DNA of 64,000 bases from Candidatus Bathyarchaeota archaeon (GCA_018396635.1 JAGTQE010000002.1:73615-137614); one strand, 5' to 3'; positions 12,308-22,025 are shown, counted from the stretch's first letter. Made by a program: numbers and translations. The notes: generated from the sequence alone by a model not told the origin.

Positions 12308-12408
12308 ATTATGGAGGTGAAGTATAGTCTAAAAATCTAGACTAAAAACCTTATATTATTTAAGTATGAAAAATATTTATGGTAATAATTTGAGGTGGAA
12401 GAGGAAAA

Positions 12409-12612
12409 TTGCGTAGGTCTTTTGCAAAGAACATTAAGGCAATCAGCCCAGTTATTGCGACGATAATAATCGTTGCAGTAGCCATAGTGATGTCAATAGC
12501 AATCGCATACTGGATGATGGGGCTAGCAACAACATTCACAAGATACGAAAAATTAGAATACACAGCAGCATACGCTGTCGCCGTGGTGGATGGAACGTCA
12601 GCCTTAGTTTAA
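12409..12612 (+). CDS. Archaeal type IV pilin, N-terminal part (class III signal peptide plus hydrophobic helix), terminated by a frameshift
   Basis: MRRSFAKNIKA/ISPVIATIIIVAVAIVMSIAIAYW is a DUF361-type prepilin leader and helix. GAGGTGG lies about 10 nt upstream of the TTG start. The ORF stops after only 67 codons. Confidence 0.8.
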   Translation: MRRSFAKNIKAISPVIATIIIVAVAIVMSIAIAYWMMGLATTFTRYEKLEYTAAYAVAVVDGTSALV

Positions 12613-12650
12613 GGAACTCTGGATCAGCAACAGCAACCGTAAACAACATT

Positions 12651-12890
12651 ATGATTAACGGTATTCCATACAAACAGATAAATATGACCGAAGAAAATAT
12701 CACTGTGACTGTGAATCCTGACGTGGCGGGAAACCCGCAATCTGTTAATCCTGGTGGTAGTATAGATATTACTATAACTATACCTGCAAAAGAGTATCAG
12801 GCTGGCAATTTTACTTCAGGTGTCAGCGTGGAAATAGTTGTCGTGACTGCTGCTGGTAATCAGTATCCTAAGACTATAGTGTTGCCCTGA
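12651..12890 (+). CDS. Archaeal type IV pilin, C-terminal globular part (frame -1 relative to 12409-12612)
   Basis: This frame is open upstream of the listed Met back to about nt 12435. From about 12588 it reads GWNVSLSLRNSGSATATVNNIMINGIPY.., the typical beta-sandwich start of DUF361 pilins. There is no start or SD of its own. Confidence 0.7.
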   Translation: MINGIPYKQINMTEENITVTVNPDVAGNPQSVNPGGSIDITITIPAKEYQAGNFTSGVSVEIVVVTAAGNQYPKTIVLP

Positions 12891-12937
12891 GATCGGCTGA
12901 GACCGCTTGGGCTGACTTAGATAAATTCCCCCTTTTT

Positions 12938-14575
12938 ATGTGTAATGTTTGTTGGGGTGATTTGATGGGCGTTAAGAAGAGTGGGGAGGATAGTGGGCGG
13001 AGGGCCAGATTCACGCTCAGTAAACTGTTCGAGAAGAAGTTTACCCCCCCACCTCCAGTTGCAGTCTTCTCAAAGATCCCCGAGAATGCTATAATAATAG
13101 AGTCATATGTGATCCATAATCCCTTCTCTAAGGTGACAATAGCATCACTACCCGACCTCGGAGGGGAGAAAGCCTACTTTATCGAGGAGGTTGAATTATC
13201 CCCCGAGGAGCACGCAATTCTAAGCAGGCTCTCTGATATAGTTAGCGTTGAGATCGAGCCCCCTCCAGAAGAGATTGTTGACCCATACAAGTATGTTGAG
13301 GGCGAGGCGGAGAGACTTGCCAGAAAATATGGCTTAACTAAGCAGGTCAAACGCCTAGGCGAGGAGTCCTGGCGTAAAATCCTATATTATCTCCAGAGGG
13401 ACCTTATAGGCTTCGGCCCACTACACGTTATAATGAGCGACAGAATGATTGAGGACATATCCGTTAACGGCGTGAATGTGCCGGTATACGTCTGGCACAG
13501 AAAATATGAGAGCATGCCAACAAACCTAAAGATAATCGACGAGAAGACATTAGACAACCTCCTAATAAAGCTCACACATATAGCCCAGAAGCACATATCG
13601 ACAGCATTCCCAATACTGGACGCAATGCTCCCAACAAAGGATAGGCTTGCCGCAACATTCAGATACGAAGTCTCACCTAAGGGAAGCACATTCTGCATAA
13701 GGAGATTCAGGGAGGAACCATTCTCAGTAATAGACCTAATAGAGCTCGGAACAATGGATGAAATGCTCGCAGCATACTTCTGGCTACTAATAGAGAACAG
13801 GATGACAATGATGGTTATAGGGGGAACAGGAGCCGGAAAAACATCAACACTAAATGCTCTAGCAAGCCTAGTAAAACCATCAATGAAGATAGTCACAGTG
13901 GAAGAGATACCTGAGCTAATGTTCCCGCACGAGAACTGGGTCCAGCTAGTCAGCAGGGCAAGCTACGGGCTGGGCACATCGAGAACAGGCGAGATAAGCC
14001 TATTCGACCTGGTCAAAGTCTCCCTAAGATATAGGCCAGACTACATTATAGTTGGCGAGGTTAGAGGCGAGGAGGCATTCGTACTATTCCAAGCAATGGC
14101 CACCGGACACGGAGGCCTAACAACAATCCACGCCGAAAGCCTAGAGCACGCAGTTAAAAGGCTAACAAGCCCGCCGATGAACGTGGCTGAAAGCTACATA
14201 CCCCTTGTCAACACAGCCATAGTTCAGGAGAGGGTTCAGCTGCCAAGGCCCAGGATGGGGCTAACCTTCGGAAGGAGGATACGTGAAGTCCACGAGATCG
14301 TAGACTACGGCAGATACGAGATGATATCTTCATGGAACCCATTAACAGACACATTCACATACAACTTCAGGAAGAGTGAGATGCTCAGGAGAATAGCCAT
14401 AAAGTACGGTGTGAGCATGGAGAGCGTCCTAGAGGAGCTAACCAGAAGAGCTCTGCTCTTCAGGGATCTGCTAATTCGTGGAGTGAGGAGCAATGTGGAT
14501 ATTAGGGCGGAAATATCTAGATACCGCCTACTAAACCCGTTCCCAATAGTAGCTATGCAGAGGAGGATTGCTTAA
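12938..14575 (+). CDS. Type IV pilus assembly ATPase (PilB/ArlI/VirB11 superfamily)
   Basis: Walker A GGTGAGKTST, Walker B/Asp box DYIIVGEVRGEEA, His box GHGGLTTIHA. The probable start is the ATG at 12965. Confidence 0.9.
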   Translation: MCNVCWGDLMGVKKSGEDSGRRARFTLSKLFEKKFTPPPPVAVFSKIPENAIIIESYVIHNPFSKVTIASLPDLGGEKAYFIEEVELSPEEHAILSRLSDIVSVEIEPPPEEIVDPYKYVEGEAERLARKYGLTKQVKRLGEESWRKILYYLQRDLIGFGPLHVIMSDRMIEDISVNGVNVPVYVWHRKYESMPTNLKIIDEKTLDNLLIKLTHIAQKHISTAFPILDAMLPTKDRLAATFRYEVSPKGSTFCIRRFREEPFSVIDLIELGTMDEMLAAYFWLLIENRMTMMVIGGTGAGKTSTLNALASLVKPSMKIVTVEEIPELMFPHENWVQLVSRASYGLGTSRTGEISLFDLVKVSLRYRPDYIIVGEVRGEEAFVLFQAMATGHGGLTTIHAESLEHAVKRLTSPPMNVAESYIPLVNTAIVQERVQLPRPRMGLTFGRRIREVHEIVDYGRYEMISSWNPLTDTFTYNFRKSEMLRRIAIKYGVSMESVLEELTRRALLFRDLLIRGVRSNVDIRAEISRYRLLNPFPIVAMQRRIA

Positions 14576-14577
14576 AC

Positions 14578-16329
14578 ATGGCGTCCCTCACCGGCCTAGC
14601 CTACCAAGGCTTCTGGTGGCTATCAAACATTTTAATGAAAGTATTCTATGGCGGGGATTCATCCAAGCTTAGAGATACGCTCGAGGCTGCTGGGATAAGA
14701 ATATATCCAGAAGCTTACATGTCGATAGTCAGCCTCCTTCTAATAGTGTCTGCGGCCACATCAGCAGTTCTGACCTGGCTCACAGGCTTCTACCCAATAG
14801 TAGCCGCCCCACTAATAGTTCTCCTAATCGGATATGCCCTGCCAAGCATAAAAGCCCAGGATAGGGCGTCAAAGCTGGATATGGAGGCACCTTTCATGGC
14901 TGCCTACGTGAGCGTCATGGCCACAGGAGGCCTCTCACCATACTCAAGCCTCAAGAGGCTTAAGGGCTGCGTCCTCCTCCCACACACGGCTAAAACTGCA
15001 AAGCAGATTGAGGTCGACGTATACCTGAAGGGTATGGATCCCATAGCCGCAATAGAGAAGTCCGCTGAGAGGGCCCCATCAAAAGAGTACAAGGAGTTCC
15101 TCATGGGATACGTTTACACACTCAGGGCTGGTGGGGACGTGGTCCACTACCTCCTAACAAGGACTGAAATGATGTTTAGGGATCTTGCGGCGAAGGTAAG
15201 GATATTTGGGGAGCGGGCTGCAATGCTCCTAGAATCATATGTTGCTGTGATGATCCTGGGAACGCTGGGCATAAGTATAGTATATTTGACGTCAATAGCC
15301 TTCCAGGGCTACTGGCAGGGAGGCTTCACAGCCGAGAACTTCCTGCTATACTCATATATCCTTGTGCCAGTCATATCAATCCTCTTCCTATACCTATCCG
15401 ATCTATCCAGCTTCCAGGAGCCAATATATGAGACCATGCCATACAAGGTGTTTATGGCATCAATGCCAATCATGCTCTTCCTAATCTTCACAATGTTCTT
15501 TCCATACCTTATGCCTGAGCTCGCCCTAATACCCCTAATAAGCCAATTCAAAGACTTCCTAACATCCCTAAGAATAATGCTCGGCCTAGAGCGGGGGATT
15601 GAGCCATCACTAGGCATGGGTATAGCCCTAATAGCCGGAACTGTTCCGGCAGCAGTAACCCACAGCTACTATGAGAGCCGTAGGGGTAAAAAGATAGTTG
15701 GCGAGGTAACAAACTTCCTCAGAGACATGACTGAAGCCAGAAAGACTGGAGCCTCACCTGAAGCATGCATAATCCAGCTATCATCTAGGCCATATGGAGC
15801 CTTCAGCAAACATCTGGGGATAGTTGCTAGGCAGATAAGGTGGGGTCAGCCGATAAGGGTTATATATGAGACGCTGAAGAGGAGGATAAGCTCCTGGTTT
15901 GCATTAATCAACCTCTATCTTCTAGTTGACGCCATAGAGATTGGCGGAGGCAACCCTGAAACGCTTGAGACCATGGCTAGGTTTGGCGAGATGCAAGCAT
16001 CCCTCGAGAAAGAGAAGATGTCCGCCCTCCGCCCGCTGATAATAATGCCATACATAGGCACGGCGCTAATGGTCTTCTCAACACTTGTGACAATAAACTT
16101 CATGTACTCAGCGGTCATGACGATAGGGCGCGTATCAATACCGATCACGCAAATACTGGCGACAATAGTTCCGGGCCTAGTCTTCCAGTCATATTTAATG
16201 GGTATAGTAACCGGCAAGATCAGTACTGGAAACGTTTCAGCTGGATTTAGGCATGCAATAATACTCGCCCTAATCGCCATGCTCTCAATGGTCTTCATGC
16301 GCTTCTTCGGCATGTTCCTACAATTATAA
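14578..16329 (+). CDS. Type IV pilus platform membrane protein (TadC/ArlJ, T2SS-F family)
   Basis: 583-aa polytopic membrane protein with two cytoplasmic T2SSF-like domains separated by TM bundles. The start is 2 nt after the ATPase stop. Confidence 0.85.
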   Translation: MASLTGLAYQGFWWLSNILMKVFYGGDSSKLRDTLEAAGIRIYPEAYMSIVSLLLIVSAATSAVLTWLTGFYPIVAAPLIVLLIGYALPSIKAQDRASKLDMEAPFMAAYVSVMATGGLSPYSSLKRLKGCVLLPHTAKTAKQIEVDVYLKGMDPIAAIEKSAERAPSKEYKEFLMGYVYTLRAGGDVVHYLLTRTEMMFRDLAAKVRIFGERAAMLLESYVAVMILGTLGISIVYLTSIAFQGYWQGGFTAENFLLYSYILVPVISILFLYLSDLSSFQEPIYETMPYKVFMASMPIMLFLIFTMFFPYLMPELALIPLISQFKDFLTSLRIMLGLERGIEPSLGMGIALIAGTVPAAVTHSYYESRRGKKIVGEVTNFLRDMTEARKTGASPEACIIQLSSRPYGAFSKHLGIVARQIRWGQPIRVIYETLKRRISSWFALINLYLLVDAIEIGGGNPETLETMARFGEMQASLEKEKMSALRPLIIMPYIGTALMVFSTLVTINFMYSAVMTIGRVSIPITQILATIVPGLVFQSYLMGIVTGKISTGNVSAGFRHAIILALIAMLSMVFMRFFGMFLQL

Positions 16330-16343
16330 TCGGCGAAAGGTAA

Positions 16344-17072
16344 GTGGCAGTTATGGAGAAGAGAGGGGTCTCACCAGTTATATCGACAGTGATCATAACG
16401 GCAATACTGCTTATAATACTTATAATAGCATCACTCCTGGCGACAAGCCTACTAGAAATCCAGATGCAGAACTCTGAGTTCGAGCAGGCTAAGACAACAA
16501 TGCTCCTGCTAGACAAGATCATAATGGATGTGTCACTAAGACCCGGAGCCGCAAGCTCAGTCCAATTCAACCAGAGGAGCGGGGGAATAGGCATGTACGA
16601 GAGCGAGCCAATCAACATAAAGATCGAAGACGCCTCAAAATCAGAGATTATCCCAATAAACTCTTACGTGATTAAGTATCGTGGGGGGAGTATGGTTTCA
16701 GCTGCAGAAGCAAATCTAACCAATCCAGGCGGACTAATAGTCGACATGTCTAAGCCCTTAGGACATGTTCGAATAGAGTCTGGAAACGGCGCATGGATAA
16801 TATTAGACTACAATAGAGTGCGTATCACCGTGAATAAGGAGCTTAGAACAATGGACATTTACTTGATCCGTTTAGAGAGAGGAACATTCGGCGGCTCCGG
16901 GACCGTGAATGTTAGAGTTCAAAACAAGGGAATAAATGTGAAATCAATAACGCTTAGCGAAAGCAGCCTAACGGTTCGCGTGGAAGTTGGCGGTATAAGC
17001 GAGGAGCAATTTTACTCAGGGATATCTGTTGTTAGGGTGATAGAGGTCACCATAATGGTCTCTGTGACTTGA
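16344..17072 (+). CDS. Pilin-like protein with a canonical class III signal peptide (DUF361 N-terminus)
   Basis: The N-terminus reads MAVMEKRG/VSPVISTVIITAILLIILIIASLL, followed by a 200-aa beta-rich domain. Confidence 0.75.
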   Translation: MAVMEKRGVSPVISTVIITAILLIILIIASLLATSLLEIQMQNSEFEQAKTTMLLLDKIIMDVSLRPGAASSVQFNQRSGGIGMYESEPINIKIEDASKSEIIPINSYVIKYRGGSMVSAAEANLTNPGGLIVDMSKPLGHVRIESGNGAWIILDYNRVRITVNKELRTMDIYLIRLERGTFGGSGTVNVRVQNKGINVKSITLSESSLTVRVEVGGISEEQFYSGISVVRVIEVTIMVSVT

Positions 17073-17073
17073 G

Positions 17074-17613
17074 GTGCTGAATGTGGTTCACATATCAATA
17101 CAGCATATTATTGGAACAGTTGCGCTAATAGGCTTGGCCATATCCCTCGCCCTAGCCTACCAGATAGTAGTTGGATATGTTGAAGAGAACGTTATCAGAA
17201 CGCAGCTAAGCCAGACTGCGGAGTACGTCTCAATGAGCATTTCACACATAATAAACCTAATGGACTTCACATATGGCATGTTTAAGGAATATGTAACCGT
17301 TTCAAAGAGCCTGAACCTTCCATCAGATCTGAGCGGAAAAGCCTACATTATAAGACTTGTAAATGAGAGCGGTATTCTATATGTTAGGGTAGAGATTCCG
17401 GGAAGAAGCAGCCTCTATGCCAAATCATCTATACCGGTTAACCCAGCGTCAAACATAAGTATAGTTACGGACGAGAATTTTACTCCAAACGATTCCACTA
17501 TCGAGCCAAAAGAGTATGTTTATGGAGGTAATCCGAATGTTGTCGTTTGGTGCGAGATTAGAAAGGGAGTGCTTTATATTGGCCTAGGCTTAAGGAGGCT
17601 TAGTGGAGAATGA
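17074..17613 (+). CDS. Pilin-like or minor pilus subunit candidate (N-terminal hydrophobic helix, non-canonical leader)
   Basis: The N-terminus reads ..QHIIG/TVALIGLAISLALAYQIVVGY. The start is 1 nt after the preceding stop (GTG), with in-operon coupling. Confidence 0.55.
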   Translation: MLNVVHISIQHIIGTVALIGLAISLALAYQIVVGYVEENVIRTQLSQTAEYVSMSISHIINLMDFTYGMFKEYVTVSKSLNLPSDLSGKAYIIRLVNESGILYVRVEIPGRSSLYAKSSIPVNPASNISIVTDENFTPNDSTIEPKEYVYGGNPNVVVWCEIRKGVLYIGLGLRRLSGE

Positions 17614-18656
17614 AGACTTACGAGTATATTTTTGCGGCAATTATAATGGTTGCAATACTGCTGGCCGCTGTCTTCCTAACCAGCATATCAGCACCACTCT
17701 ATAGGAGCACCTCCGATGTGGAGCAGTTAAAGATGACCGCGCAGAAGGTAATGGCGCAGATACTCCTAAGCCCAGGTAAACCGGAAGACTGGGGTGAGAA
17801 CATTACTTTAAGGGCTTCAGACCTATCATCTTTCGGCTTAGCGGTAAGCACGGTCTTCACCCGCGAGGCATTTGTCCTGGACCCTGATAAAGTTCAGAGA
17901 CTAAGCCAGACTCTGCCCAAAAGTCTCTCTATACTGCCGGAAAGGATTCTAGAGTTGCTGAGCCTAGGCTCTAAAAAAACTGGCTTTGAATATGGTATAA
18001 GAATAGAATTTATTCCAGCATTAAATATAATGATGAATCTGAGCTTAGATAGAAAAGTTAATGTTATCGTTATCTCGGAACAGGGTATGCCGGCTAAGGG
18101 TGCTAAAGTGACTGTTGGGGCGGTCTTTCCTTTTAATAATGAGGTTCTCTTAGAGCGGGCTTATGGCTCTACTGACGAAAACGGGCGCTGCACCCTAGAC
18201 TTAACCTTCTCGAGTCCAGCGCTCCTAATCGCTGCTGTAGATTATTACGGTGTACAAGGGGTTGCGGTGAAGGCTGTTGGCGCCAACACAAATGCCTACT
18301 TTATTGGCAGCTTCCTTCTATCATCCTCTCTTATATCCAGAGAGGAAGCCTACCAAATATTTCTCACAAAGCTTCCAAGTGGAACGATTAATGTAGGATG
18401 CGTACGCTATGAGTTAACCTACAATAATGAGGAGATTAACGGCTACTATGCGTATGAGATGAATGGCACAGAACCGCATACTGTCGCCGTGGTGGCGGTG
18501 GCTGATGGTGGCCTTATAGCGGCTTGGAAGATTGTCCCCGAGAGCTTCGGCCCCTCAGCTAAAGAGATACCTTTAGCCTACATGGTTGAACGGAGCGTTA
18601 AGATTGGGTTCTCCTCATACACGGTTAGATTATGGGTGTGGAGGATGTCGTGGTGA
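17610..18656 (+). CDS. Pilus-associated protein with an N-terminal hydrophobic helix
   Basis: The N-terminus reads MKTYEYIFAAIIMVAILLAAVFL. An ATGA start/stop overlap links it to the upstream gene. Length is 348 aa. Confidence 0.55.
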   Translation: MKTYEYIFAAIIMVAILLAAVFLTSISAPLYRSTSDVEQLKMTAQKVMAQILLSPGKPEDWGENITLRASDLSSFGLAVSTVFTREAFVLDPDKVQRLSQTLPKSLSILPERILELLSLGSKKTGFEYGIRIEFIPALNIMMNLSLDRKVNVIVISEQGMPAKGAKVTVGAVFPFNNEVLLERAYGSTDENGRCTLDLTFSSPALLIAAVDYYGVQGVAVKAVGANTNAYFIGSFLLSSSLISREEAYQIFLTKLPSGTINVGCVRYELTYNNEEINGYYAYEMNGTEPHTVAVVAVADGGLIAAWKIVPESFGPSAKEIPLAYMVERSVKIGFSSYTVRLWVWRMSW

Positions 18657-19123
18657 TGGGCTACTCAAGTTTTGGGCAGATGAGAATAATTGAGGCCGTT
18701 ATAGCGGCCACACTAATGTTCATAGTCTTCACAGCGGCTTTCTTCATGCTCTTCTCCTCAGAGAAATTCTTTAGGCAGGAGGCTATTGACTTAAACAGGC
18801 TAGCGTATAACGTCCTGCATCGTCTAGCCGAGTCAGGTGTGATTGAGACCGCTATTGATAAAAGCCAGAGCGCCATGTTGGCCAGCGCCCTCCAGAGCCT
18901 GCTGCCCCAAAACGTATACTTCAACCTGACAATTTATGAGAGGGATGGATCCGGCCAGGGATGGATCCCGGTTAATTTAGATGGGAAACCTTACGTCTCA
19001 AACGCCTCCGGAGGAGTTTTTGAGAGGTTAAGTGAGGTTGCCTCAGCCAGCATAACCTATACGTCGAAGAATGGTAAAATATATTATTTGAGTTTAGTTC
19101 TCACGAGGGCTGGGATTACATGA
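18632..19123 (+). CDS. Pilin-like protein (G/Q prepilin-like site)
   Basis: The probable start is the ATG at 18656, which overlaps the upstream TGA. The N-terminus reads MGYSSFG/QMRIIEAVIAATLMFIVFTAAFFML. Confidence 0.6.
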   Translation: MGVEDVVVMGYSSFGQMRIIEAVIAATLMFIVFTAAFFMLFSSEKFFRQEAIDLNRLAYNVLHRLAESGVIETAIDKSQSAMLASALQSLLPQNVYFNLTIYERDGSGQGWIPVNLDGKPYVSNASGGVFERLSEVASASITYTSKNGKIYYLSLVLTRAGIT

Positions 19124-19217
19124 GTTTCCAGCTTAATCTATATTATTATATTACTGGACCACAAAGAATATATACAATGACAGATATAACATATAACAGC
19201 ATAATAGAGTCTTCGAG

Positions 19218-21107
19218 TTGATTCATGTGAATAGATTTAGGAAAGATAGAAGAGGGCAGTTCGTTATTCTGGTCGCAGTTATAATAGCAGCCTTCATGTT
19301 CTCCCTAATACTATCAATAGGCCAGATAAACGCGAGAAGGCAGGAAGTATCCTATGAGCCAGTAGACGAAACAGTCCTAGCGATAACAAGCGACTTCGAA
19401 AGATGCCTAACAAGAGCACTGGCAATCGCAACACAAAATTACAGCGAAACTTGGGACATGGATTTGGCTAAGATAAGCGGAGAGAAGTTCATTAATGATT
19501 GGCTTAAAGTTCTCCTAGAATCTTATCAAGGATTCGGCATAGATATCACTCTAATACCTGAGAAAGGCACAGGCAAGAATATAGCTTGGGCCATAGATTG
19601 GGATAAAAAAGAGGGCATAAGTATGGTTTATACAACCTTCGGCATGAATATTAAGGCATATGGACTTAAAAACCTGGCCATCACAATGCAAAGAACGTTA
19701 TACCTTGAGATACTAAATACTGAAGTAAAGTTAAACAATTCGGATAGCCTCATAATAGTGGCATTTAGAGTCTGTCTAGGTGGTATGAAGAAACGCTTTA
19801 TACCAGTATCAGATCTTGCACAGGCTAATGTAAAGTTGCTTGTTAACGGAACTAATGAAATCAAAATCGAGAGTCTTGAATATTTGAACCAGGGAACATA
19901 TAGGGCTACGTTTAACTTCGATGGCTCAGTTATAAAATATATTACTTTAATCGTTACAGACAACAATGGTATAAGAGTTGCGGCGAGATGGGGATCATGC
20001 ATTCTATTCTTAGAAAGCGATGATTTATCAACACAAGGTATCGATAATGAAGGCAGCTTCACGATTAACGGAACGACGGTTAAACTGCAGCATGCCCCAT
20101 ATGTACTGTCACTTTTCACAAATCAAACGCTTGCAATCTCGTTTGCCCCGCCTACTGGAAGTGAATTTAAATACTTCTCGTCCATCGGCTTCGTCGATGT
20201 GTCGCAAAATGGGGTTAATGCAATAATAAAAGTGAAAAATTATGGCTATGAAAGCGTCAATGCAAGAGTAATCGCCCACTACAATAGCTCAAGCATTCCT
20301 ACTGTAGAGAATTGCAATATAACTCTGATGAGCCTAGAGGATGGAGGCGCTACTTTCAATTTAGGAAATATTACATTGACATGGTCAGGGGTCTCGCAGA
20401 CGTTCGACGAGTTGCCAGCATCAGTTCTAGTTCCATACAATGAGTGGATAGAAATAAAATATGACCCGGAACCTGGATATCTTTTCAAATATTGGGAGTG
20501 GGATCCTGTCTACGCAATAGAAATGGATGATAGCTTTTCTTCATCAACTGTTTTTCGTGCTACTGGTAATGGAACAATTATAGCAGTATACAGCACATCT
20601 AGGCCTGCGGAATGGCGAACTATTTATCTTGCCCCCCTAAAAGAGAAAGGCGCTGGATCTGAGAAAAAAGAAGAGTTTTCACTTACAATAAAATATCCCG
20701 ATGAGCTTCCAGACGTTACGCCGCGCCTTAATAATCCACATGATAGCCGTAAGGGGGAAACCGTGGAGACGACGCCAACAGATTTACTTCTCGGCGAAGA
20801 AATAACTATAATTATATGGGCAAAGTATACTAAAGAGGGAAAAGAAAAAGATGATTACATAAATGTCAAATTTACACTGGGCTACATCGATAGTGAGGGA
20901 GTTTTCCATGAGATTGGCAATAACACGGCTAGTATCGGTAAATCATCAGGACCACCTGTCGAGCAACCACCAATATACATTTCACCAAATATCGAAGTTA
21001 TACCAGCAGGCAGTAAAATAGTTCTAATAATTGAACGCTTGGATGAGGGCGAGGGAACACTACATATAGACTGCGGTCCAGGCAAATCAAGAATTATACT
21101 TTGGTAA
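19218..21107 (+). CDS. Large (629 aa) pilin-like protein, candidate pilus tip or adhesin subunit
   Basis: The N-terminus reads (M)NRFRKDRRG/QFVILVAVIIAAFMFSLILSIG. The remainder is about 590 aa, beta-rich and sequon-rich. It is preceded by a 94-nt AT-rich spacer. Confidence 0.65.
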   Translation: MIHVNRFRKDRRGQFVILVAVIIAAFMFSLILSIGQINARRQEVSYEPVDETVLAITSDFERCLTRALAIATQNYSETWDMDLAKISGEKFINDWLKVLLESYQGFGIDITLIPEKGTGKNIAWAIDWDKKEGISMVYTTFGMNIKAYGLKNLAITMQRTLYLEILNTEVKLNNSDSLIIVAFRVCLGGMKKRFIPVSDLAQANVKLLVNGTNEIKIESLEYLNQGTYRATFNFDGSVIKYITLIVTDNNGIRVAARWGSCILFLESDDLSTQGIDNEGSFTINGTTVKLQHAPYVLSLFTNQTLAISFAPPTGSEFKYFSSIGFVDVSQNGVNAIIKVKNYGYESVNARVIAHYNSSSIPTVENCNITLMSLEDGGATFNLGNITLTWSGVSQTFDELPASVLVPYNEWIEIKYDPEPGYLFKYWEWDPVYAIEMDDSFSSSTVFRATGNGTIIAVYSTSRPAEWRTIYLAPLKEKGAGSEKKEEFSLTIKYPDELPDVTPRLNNPHDSRKGETVETTPTDLLLGEEITIIIWAKYTKEGKEKDDYINVKFTLGYIDSEGVFHEIGNNTASIGKSSGPPVEQPPIYISPNIEVIPAGSKIVLIIERLDEGEGTLHIDCGPGKSRIILW

Positions 21108-21267: not shown

Positions 21268-21630
21268 TCATACGTTCATTTTTATTTTTGTAGAAAAGAT
21301 GTTTAAGTCGTCCCTTAAGACCACGCCATGTTCTATGGTTTCCATAGCAATTGGCTCCCTTCTCTCTATAAGTCTCTTAAATTCTTTAGGCGTTAGGGCG
21401 ATAATCTGGTAGCCTGGAGGAGCATCAAGGTTTTCCAATCTATGTACGGGGCTTCCCACAAATTCTTCTGAGATAACTAATATGTCTACATCGCTCCAGA
21501 GGTTGAAATCACCCCTCGCATATGAGCCTATTAAGATGACTGTGGCCTTAAATGAGATCCTAGAGGCCCACTCCTTAGCCTCTAATATGCGTTTCTCCCT
21601 CAGCCTTCTCCTTTCTTCAATGATCCCCAT
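21268..21630 (-). CDS. Minimal nucleotidyltransferase (MNT), antitoxin-type partner of HEPN
   Basis: Pol-beta NTase motif GSYARGDFNLWSDVDILVIS. It overlaps the upstream HEPN ORF by 31 nt. Confidence 0.85.
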   Translation of the reverse strand: MGIIEERRRLREKRILEAKEWASRISFKATVILIGSYARGDFNLWSDVDILVISEEFVGSPVHRLENLDAPPGYQIIALTPKEFKRLIERREPIAMETIEHGVVLRDDLNIFSTKIKMNV

Positions 21631-22025
21631 TTCCCCTCAACCCAACCTATTATATTCTCAGCGAACTTTATAGCTTCTTCAGCATCCCTCCGCGTATAAT
21701 ATTCGTCTGGGCTGCCCTCAACCCAAGCATTAGGATACCTTGTTGGCACATAATATTTATCTAATGTCTTAGCAGCCTGAACCACGTTATCCTCACATCC
21801 AAAGATTCTCCCAGCCCCCTCCAAAAGTCTCGACAAGCTATGCCCATACGAGGGCATGCCTAAACCCCTGAGCAAAGCCTTTAAGGCAAGCTCAGCCGCC
21901 TGATGGGATTTAAAGCAAGCCCAATTATAGTCGCCCCTCTCAAAATCACCCCTTGCAGAATTCAGAGTCTTCCTGCTAAAGAGAATCCATCTTAAGTATT
22001 CGCTTTCATCCATGCTTCTCCACAA
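21600..22025 (-). CDS. HEPN domain protein
   Basis: Contains the HEPN (PF05168-like) helices KSHQAAELALKALLRGLG..GHSL and YYVPTRYP. It is paired with the MNT. Confidence 0.8.
   Translation of the reverse strand: MWRSMDESEYLRWILFSRKTLNSARGDFERGDYNWACFKSHQAAELALKALLRGLGMPSYGHSLSRLLEGAGRIFGCEDNVVQAAKTLDKYYVPTRYPNAWVEGSPDEYYTRRDAEEAIKFAENIIGWVEGKWGSLKKGEG

Follow-up and report, generated by a model that had tools for sequence, protein, structure and literature searches.

Which surface filament is encoded by a compact block of pilus-like genes in a hot-spring Bathyarchaeia-like archaeon, and is it of a new kind? The genes lie at positions 12409–21107 of a 64,000-nt stretch of DNA from Candidatus Bathyarchaeota archaeon (GCA_018396635.1 JAGTQE010000002.1:73615-137614). 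We refer to this whole stretch as the window and give coordinates along its full 64 kb; the five proteins of the accessory cassette at the end of the block are labelled A–E in gene order. A preliminary description of the locus had taken it for a distinct system with an unusually large set of pilin-like proteins. Our reading, to which we assign a probability of about 0.7, is that the locus is the sole type IV pilus (T4P) system of its genome, that it belongs to a widespread group of loci in TACK and Asgard archaea whose nearest characterised relative is the Aap pilus of Sulfolobus, and that it encodes an adhesive pilus primed and tipped by A–E.

Identity of the pilus core

The genome (1.45 Mb, 99% complete) holds what appears to be a complete T4P core, made up of an assembly ATPase, a platform protein, a prepilin peptidase encoded in trans and PilA-type pilins, whose two genes are frame-interrupted or cut off by a contig end in the assembly. 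The Walker A motif GGTGAGKTS, the Walker B motif DYIIVGEVRGEE and the His box of the ATPase are visible in the translation, and the protein is the only T2SSE match above cut-off in the genome. The domain matches listed in Table 1 bear out the assignment of this protein to the PilB/ArlI family and of its neighbour to the TadC/ArlJ family of platform proteins, as had been proposed from inspection of the window. The window contains no prepilin peptidase, again as first described; the only one in the genome is a 276-residue protein on another contig (C11:536-1366) with matches to Peptidase_A24 (1e-13) and Arc_PepC_II (3e-18).

The affinities of the two core proteins were examined by model scores, pairwise comparison and phylogeny. 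Among the NCBIfam models, the ATPase does best with FlaI (346 bits, cut-off 550) and BasE (238 bits, cut-off 1000), and the platform protein with UpsF (95 bits, cut-off 400), BasF (74 bits, cut-off 1300) and ArlJ (37 bits). In pairwise comparisons, the ATPase scores highest with AapE (342 bits), followed by ArlI (237 bits) and UpsE (215 bits), and the platform protein is homologous over its full length to AapF of Sulfolobus acidocaldarius, with 23% identity over 526 residues (E = 8e-29). The Sulfolobaceae reference loci were located by way of the UpsF equivalog, and one reference genome (G102), which we take to be that of S. acidocaldarius, has three ATPases, in ArlI-like, Ups-like and aapA-X-E-F-B-like contexts.

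A maximum-likelihood tree of 92 ATPase sequences, sampled without EpdL/K and the haloarchaeal PilB1–5 and obtained by a quick search with long branches, places the window sequence in a clade of four from Bathyarchaeia (SH-aLRT 99). This clade is nested in one of 21 sequences that includes Thermofilaceae, Desulfurococcales, Calditenuaceae, Nitrososphaeria and Brockarchaeota. Neither the Aap nor the Ups clade of Sulfolobales falls among these 21 sequences; the Aap clade stands on a branch of its own with a length of 1.67, and the placement of ArlI is unreliable because its branch is very long. The phylogenetic check suggested with the preliminary description thus finds the ATPase outside the Aap, Ups and ArlI clades of Sulfolobales.

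It is extremely improbable that the locus encodes an archaellum for motility or a Ups-type pilus for DNA exchange. The best NCBIfam match of the ATPase is indeed the FlaI model, but the score falls short of the cut-off, and AapE itself reaches a similar value, 305 bits, on the same model. No match to the archaellin-family domain PF01917 (Arch_flagellin) was found in the 99%-complete genome, whereas archaeal control genomes were matched. ArlH, ArlX and ArlCDE are not among the neighbours of the locus, a statement confined to the flanks since no genome-wide search was aimed at them. As to Ups, the UpsA model gives 24 of the 130 bits required and UpsF 95 of the 400, and the ATPase lies outside the Ups clade. 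Both identities were rejected on the model scores, the ATPase tree and the lack of an archaellin domain in the genome. The non-archaellar character claimed at the outset is upheld by that same lack and by flanks that hold housekeeping or HEPN/MNT genes, and the gene content is likewise unlike that of the Sulfolobus ups and aap operons: a search of the host genome with S. acidocaldarius AapX found nothing, and UpsA, UpsF, BasE and BasF all score far under their cut-offs.

The cassette of pilin-like proteins A–E

One genome per species was scanned for relatives of the locus, yielding 592 related ATPase loci, the best 80 of which were analysed; the cassette families were recovered with phmmer and then with iterative hidden Markov model (HMM) searches. 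The five families recur in more than 20 of these loci. They follow the platform gene in the same order in four loci of Bathyarchaeia (L009, L013, L023 and L025), and in a fifth (L008) the contig ends within D. The same order is kept in Thermofilaceae/Thermoprotei (L018 and L030, with L016 rearranged), in Brockarchaeota and relatives, where the genes are divergently arranged (L015 and L019), and in L035. The arrangement A-B-ATPase-TadC-TadC-(small ORF)-C-D-E, where ORF denotes an open reading frame, is found in L036/L037 and in four Heimdall/Hodarchaeota loci (L063, L073, L075 and L119). Members of families A and B are present in the Desulfurococcales loci L031 and L033. The full series TackOD1-pilin-ATPase-platform-A-B-C-D-E, TackOD1 being a gene upstream of the pilin, is complete in two genomes of the same genus as the host. 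Conservation of gene order, which the preliminary description had marked as a point to be checked, is thus seen in these two genomes and in many loci of Bathyarchaeia, Thermofilaceae and Brockarchaeota.

HMMs built from Thermoproteota sequences only detect the syntenic Asgard ORFs at E-values of 1e-5 to 1e-20, with coverage that extends far past the hydrophobic helix. The genes of the four Asgard loci form an ordered nine-gene T4P cluster; in a census published in 2026, ordered type IV filament (T4F) loci are described as rare in Asgard archaea and those of Heimdallarchaea as core-only (PMC13705601). Of 401 sampled Thermoproteota genomes, 115 carry family C, and these span 57 of 161 genera; none of the 15 sampled Sulfolobaceae genomes yielded it. 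Some of the carriers have complete genomes, so that cultivated isolates with the cassette probably exist. The pilin-like set can no longer be called unusually large, since the same five families are present in more than 20 loci and five or more minor pilins have been published for other archaeal T4P systems (Makarova et al., 2016; PMC4858521).

The amino termini of the five proteins are family traits. Judged from their sequences, A, D and E have class III signal peptides that should be processable, and B and C start at the hydrophobic helix itself. In family A, a [KR]G/VS.VI leader is conserved across 25 homologues, the signature [KR]G/VSPVI being PilA-like, and A is always found beside B. Family D conserves RG/Q.R..E, with the Glu invariant in 19 sequences, and family E conserves RG/Q(F/I/M), with Gly and Gln invariant in 39 sequences. 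The 18 homologues of B begin MP.....H.IGT and run directly into the helix; in hhalign comparisons, this N-terminus pairs with the mature N-terminus of A at 69.6% probability. Family C opens with M..(T/I)LEY in Thermoproteota and with an RRRG/QIRAIDF leader in its Asgard orthologues, and it conserves the motif PG.P..WG. Neither B nor C has an upstream in-frame start in the window according to the ORF listing, so that their want of a leader is real. For D there is an alternative upstream start at 18632, and the database gene model of E begins three codons later, giving 626 residues. The initial sorting of the leaders into two canonical DUF361-type, two G/Q and two non-canonical sites was accurate, and each type is conserved in the homologues; the expectation that the downstream ORFs would carry processable class III signal peptides stands for A, D and E and fails for the leaderless B and C. 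Only families C and D have a conserved acidic residue at position 5–6 of the (mature) N-terminal helix (window 17610–17630 and 18677–18697), which A, E and the major pilin lack; it recalls Glu5 of bacterial pilins.

Beyond the helix, the larger members are built of beta domains. The AlphaFold2 model of C, derived from an alignment of 46 sequences, has a pLDDT of 92 and a pTM of 0.85 and consists of a 52-residue helix (residues 2–53) followed by all-beta structure. That of E (pLDDT 86) is helical between residues 11 and 102, where the N-terminal helix and two more make up the DUF7261 region, and continues into beta-sandwich/jelly-roll domains. Foldseek comparisons with the Protein Data Bank (PDB) returned generic FnIII/Ig matches for C and Gram-positive adhesin and galactose-binding-like domains for E, with TM ≤ 0.23 in both cases. 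Orthologues of E have the first ~250 residues in common and vary in their C-terminal part, with lengths that range from ~240 to 1133 residues; one carries an F5/8 type C domain. In the D orthologue of a Bathyarchaeota metagenome-assembled genome (MAG; L013:6009-7022), a VWA domain (6.8e-21) is grafted after the pilin-like N-terminus. The variability of E and the domains grafted into D and E orthologues are the pattern of modular pilins and adhesins, and the modelled structure makes E a candidate tip adhesin.

Direct Pfam and NCBIfam scans of the window proteins A–E gave sub-threshold matches only. A weak mapping emerged from a Pfam scan of every member of each family, in which A corresponds to DUF7289 (6 of 25 members, best 1.3e-5), B to DUF7266 (2 of 18), C to DUF7287 (1 of 17), D to DUF7288 (3 of 19) and E to DUF7261 (4 of 15, together with precomputed matches on close homologues). 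These matches mostly lie under the Pfam gathering scores; DUF7288 is above cut-off in Haloferax volcanii. At the level of sequence, there are hints here that the whole cassette has haloarchaeal counterparts. A literature search on the names of the DUF families found nothing. The close named homologues are all from Candidatus Bathyarchaeia, Nezhaarchaeales or Thermoproteota MAGs and are annotated as hypothetical; D has 116 database homologues, and all those named by their source are "hypothetical".

By analogy with the bacterial minor-pilin/PilY1 and GspHIJK complexes and with the minor pilins of the Methanococcus maripaludis Epd pilus, we propose how the products of the locus may act together. 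The PibD-type peptidase encoded on the other contig would clip the short basic leader from the PilA-like pilin and from A, D and E. A filament would then arise as the hexameric ATPase and the polytopic platform pull the hydrophobic N-terminal helices out of the membrane and polymerise them. The processed A, D and E and the leaderless but pilin-shaped B and C may together form an initiation or tip complex, which would prime assembly and display the large, variable, beta-rich E as an adhesive tip, and the TackOD1 zinc-ribbon protein probably regulates the locus. The identities of the genes, the signal-peptide motifs, the conservation of the cassette and the folds of C and E come from the analysis itself; the priming or tip role, the adhesion and the regulation are suggested by analogy.

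Several considerations weigh against this reading. The tip-complex model rests on a bacterial analogy, and B and C, which are without a peptidase site, may instead be membrane-anchored components of the base, as ArlF/G are in archaella. The Foldseek searches of the C and E models against the PDB gave no specific structural relative of either protein and no minor pilin, PilY1 or GspK. The source-named database homologues of the cassette are all called hypothetical; the support in the ATPase tree comes from a quick search with long branches; and the assembly has the gene for the major pilin of the operon in broken form.

A different use of the same parts, which we consider quite unlikely, would be a short pseudopilus or bindosome-like scaffold serving secretion, substrate scavenging or envelope crossing, with A–E as pseudopilins of the type II secretion kind. 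One major and five minor pilin-like proteins resemble GspG with GspHIJK, the pseudopilin arrangement of bacterial type II secretion. Any class III substrate must use this locus, since the genome has no other T4F machine, and T4F machines functionalised by substrate-binding proteins have been proposed in the 2026 census (PMC13705601). The BasE and BasF models, however, score far under their cut-offs, no ABC transporter adjoins the locus, and the major pilin has the typical make-up of a PilA-type filament subunit and can be aligned with solved archaeal pilus subunits, although its full-length matches to them are weak. When the ORFs of the genome were scanned with a regular expression for class III leaders, no obvious substrate-binding protein turned up, but the scan returned mostly polytopic membrane proteins and was too crude and noisy to be relied on.

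Layout of the locus and the interrupted pilin

The ORF listing gives eight co-directional genes on the + strand, for the pilin, the ATPase, the platform and A–E, or nine if TackOD1 is counted (Table 1). The preliminary description had spoken of nine ORFs, seven of them small, figures that do not match the listing; nine is reached only with the upstream gene. It was right to see a same-strand, coupled block, in that the ORFs from 12938 to 21107 are all on the + strand where it had placed them, and its spacings are all correct: gaps of 2 nt between ATPase and platform, 14 nt between platform and A and 1 nt between A and B, then overlaps of 4 nt between B and C and 1 nt between C and D. A gap of 94 nt separates D from E.

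Table 1. Genes of the pilus locus and of the TackOD1 protein upstream of it, with window coordinates; a slash in a leader marks the peptidase site
Gene product	Position	Strand	Evidence
TackOD1 multi-zinc-ribbon protein, 352 aa	11249..12307	+	Pfam TackOD1 PF18551, 7e-33
PilA-like major prepilin, frame-interrupted	12409..12890	+	TIGR02537, 1e-5; orthologue alignment
PilB/ArlI/VirB11-family assembly ATPase, 545 aa	12938..14575	+	T2SSE, 1e-34
TadC/PilC/ArlJ-type polytopic platform, 583 aa, one gene	14578..16329	+	T2SSF in two stretches, 7e-18
Accessory A, 242 aa, pilin-like, class III signal peptide MEKRG/VSPVISTVI	16344..17072	+	Motif kept across homologues
Accessory B, 179 aa, leaderless, short N-terminus straight into hydrophobic helix	17074..17613	+	No [KR][GA] site
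Accessory C, 348 aa, leaderless, pilin-like, helix and tandem Ig/FnIII-like beta-sandwich domains	17610..18656	+	AlphaFold2 model
Accessory D, 155 aa, minor-pilin-like, SSFG/QMRIIEAV, invariant Glu at +6	18656..19123	+	Family alignment
Accessory E, 629 aa, pilin-like N-terminus DRRG/QFVILVAV, three-helix DUF7261 module, variable beta-sandwich/jelly-roll array	19218..21107	+	Alignment and AlphaFold2 model

The pilin had been described as a single ORF at 12409–12890. This interval is 482 nt long, which is not divisible by 3, and a frameshift in the assembly splits it into an ORF in frame 1 (12409–12612), which encodes the N-terminal part, and one in frame 0 (~12588–12890), which encodes the C-terminal part, with the break near 12575–12612. 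The leader is KNIKA/ISPVIATIII, and TIGR02537, a model of archaellin and pilin N-termini, is matched above its cut-off. When frame 1 up to about VVDG is joined to frame 0 from WNVSL, the product has 161 residues and aligns end to end with intact orthologues of 148–174 residues, the C-terminal motif G..YPK..LP included. The same-genus genomes G045 and G372 have intact pilins of 162 and 165 residues, and at the break the window sequence is 4 nt shorter than that of G045. Programmed frameshifting was considered and ruled out, since the site has neither a slippery heptamer nor a homopolymer and the same-genus orthologues lack the break. What remains is a simple indel, which is genuine or else was introduced during assembly.

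Were the indel real, the system could be decaying or switched off, with the frameshift as a genuine inactivating mutation that leaves the locus unable to make its own filament. The frame break is there in the sequence, and it is set against intact pilins in two genomes of the same genus. We nevertheless hold decay to be unlikely. The seven other genes and that of TackOD1 are all intact over their full length and retain conserved motifs, and an isolated indel in a contig assembled from a metagenome may reflect an error of assembly or consensus. Moreover, a second PilA-like pilin gene lies beside that of the peptidase on contig C11 (C11:1-1366 region), divergent from it and truncated by the end of the contig. 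If the frameshift is real, the filament would need this paralogue, and it may supply the subunit. A related MAG, MFD01872 (L009:9242-13384), likewise has a split pilin, and its platform gene is broken into four, in both cases probably through indel errors in long reads; this is a reminder that a lone frameshift in a MAG locus says little about whether a gene is a pseudogene.

The TackOD1 gene occupies the same place in the two same-genus genomes, and about 25 of the 80 loci have a TackOD1 gene no more than 10 kb from the related ATPase. Between it and the pilin, at 12308–12408, the window has a palindrome and the putative promoter region. TackOD1 (arCOG06883) has been reported inside thaumarchaeal T4P loci (PMC5847659). 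Its product here is probably a regulator or sensor of the pilus locus, to judge from this company. The C-terminal third of the protein has a weak match (E = 0.046) to Mrr_cat, a restriction endonuclease fold.

Two intergenic stretches were observed in addition. A C5T5 tract lies at 12891–12937, between the pilin stop and the ATPase start, and the 94-nt spacer ahead of gene E (19124–19217) is AT-rich and TATA-like. The former could be an attenuating terminator and the latter an internal promoter of gene E, and both may tune transcript ratios. The flanking genes are unrelated to pili and encode an adenine deaminase, AlaX, a HEPN/MNT pair and a phosphoglucomutase (PGM). The HEPN gene (1.9e-33) and the overlapping nucleotidyltransferase/MNT gene (6.8e-10) lie immediately 3′ of the pilus locus, at 21268–22025 on the - strand.

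Relation to known filaments and wider meaning

The nearest characterised relative is the Aap pilus of S. acidocaldarius (aapA-X-E-F-B), to which the window locus is tied by the top score of its ATPase, by a platform homologous to AapF and by a PilA-type pilin. It differs from Aap in that its genome is without the Fe-S protein AapX and its ATPase is outside the Sulfolobales Aap clade, and in that five extra conserved pilin-like genes follow the platform, none of which is found in the aap locus. A published type fits these features, since Sivabalasarma and Albers (2026) report that Bathyarchaeota and Heimdallarchaeota have Aap-like systems devoid of aapX, which they call simpler or minimal (PMC13705601). 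Aap pili mediate adhesion and twitching (PMC13705601).

Another close parallel is subclade 4A, in which Makarova et al. (2016) placed the Aap and Desulfurococcales loci together with three to four untraceable "minor pilin" components (PMC4858521), and which in the later census becomes a subsystem with accessory genes downstream of the platform (PMC13705601). Presumed minor-pilin genes follow the platform in the window too and may be their equivalents; Desulfurococcales ATPases share the clade of 21 sequences with that of the window, and the two Desulfurococcales loci noted above carry A and B families. The published minimal 4A locus, however, has two platform genes and a PilY-like adhesin, whereas the window has one platform gene and a DUF7261-type protein.

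The haloarchaeal pil loci of clade 4C/system 2, exemplified by pilB1-C1 of H. volcanii, resemble the window through the weak one-to-one mapping of A–E to DUF7289, DUF7266, DUF7287, DUF7288 and DUF7261. System 2 mixes pilins that have class III signal peptides with pilin-like proteins without that motif (Sivabalasarma and Albers, 2026; PMC13705601), as the window cassette does. The ATPases nonetheless belong to different clades. Deletion of pilB1-C1 reduces adhesion in H. volcanii (PMC6491452).

Bacterial priming complexes (FimU-PilVWXE with PilY1, GspHIJK and ComGD-GG) and the M. maripaludis Epd system likewise have four to five low-abundance pilin-like proteins encoded with the machinery and, as in the cassette, one large, modular, adhesin-like member. 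Piliation of M. maripaludis requires minor pilins (PMC13705601). The VWA module seen in one D orthologue is shared with PilY1 and with PilB of Streptococcus sanguinis, and the Gln at +1 of window D and E is shared with EppA substrates. Against these likenesses, no sequence or specific structural similarity was detected and B and C have no leader peptide; in addition, the conserved acidic residue at +5/+6 is confined to C and D of the window and is not in its major pilin, unlike in bacterial pilins. With its single platform gene and PibD-type (Arc_PepC_II) peptidase, the window system would also differ from Epd, which has two platform genes and the dedicated peptidase EppA. For the bindosome (Bas), the scores are 238 of the 1000 bits required for BasE and 74 of the 1300 for BasF.

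Because the censuses already describe Aap-like and 4A loci with accessories, the locus belongs to a published, uncharacterised kind. The first impression of a distinct, uncharacterised surface-filament system is therefore sound as regards experimental characterisation, but the system is not distinct: it is widespread in Thermoproteota and Asgard archaea, and published categories fit it. The locus is ordinary for its lineage; the system is not a new one of its own, and its set of pilins is not unusually large. What seems under-described is the fixed nature of the accessory set, a cassette of five families that is shared with Asgard archaea.

There is a modest chance that the cassette is a general, under-recognised feature of archaeal pili. 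It is possible, though we advance it only tentatively, that A–E form an ancient archaeal minor-pilin initiation or tip module, present in Thermoproteota and Asgard archaea and distantly, as the DUF families, in Halobacteria, and that two of its subunits have lost their leader and enter without processing by the prepilin peptidase. Few Bathyarchaeia or Asgard archaea have been cultured and almost nothing is known of their surface appendages, and a locus of this type is present in about a quarter of sampled Thermoproteota. The cassette, with its hallmarks of one-to-one family signatures, leaderless members and modular adhesin-like variants, offers concrete candidates for an archaeal equivalent of the bacterial minor-pilin priming complex, the role of which has barely been addressed experimentally in archaea. 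If the idea of an ancient module is true, censuses based on arCOGs may miss the cassette, and the "minimal" or "core-only" Aap-like systems of Bathyarchaeota and Heimdallarchaeota would be nine-gene machines.

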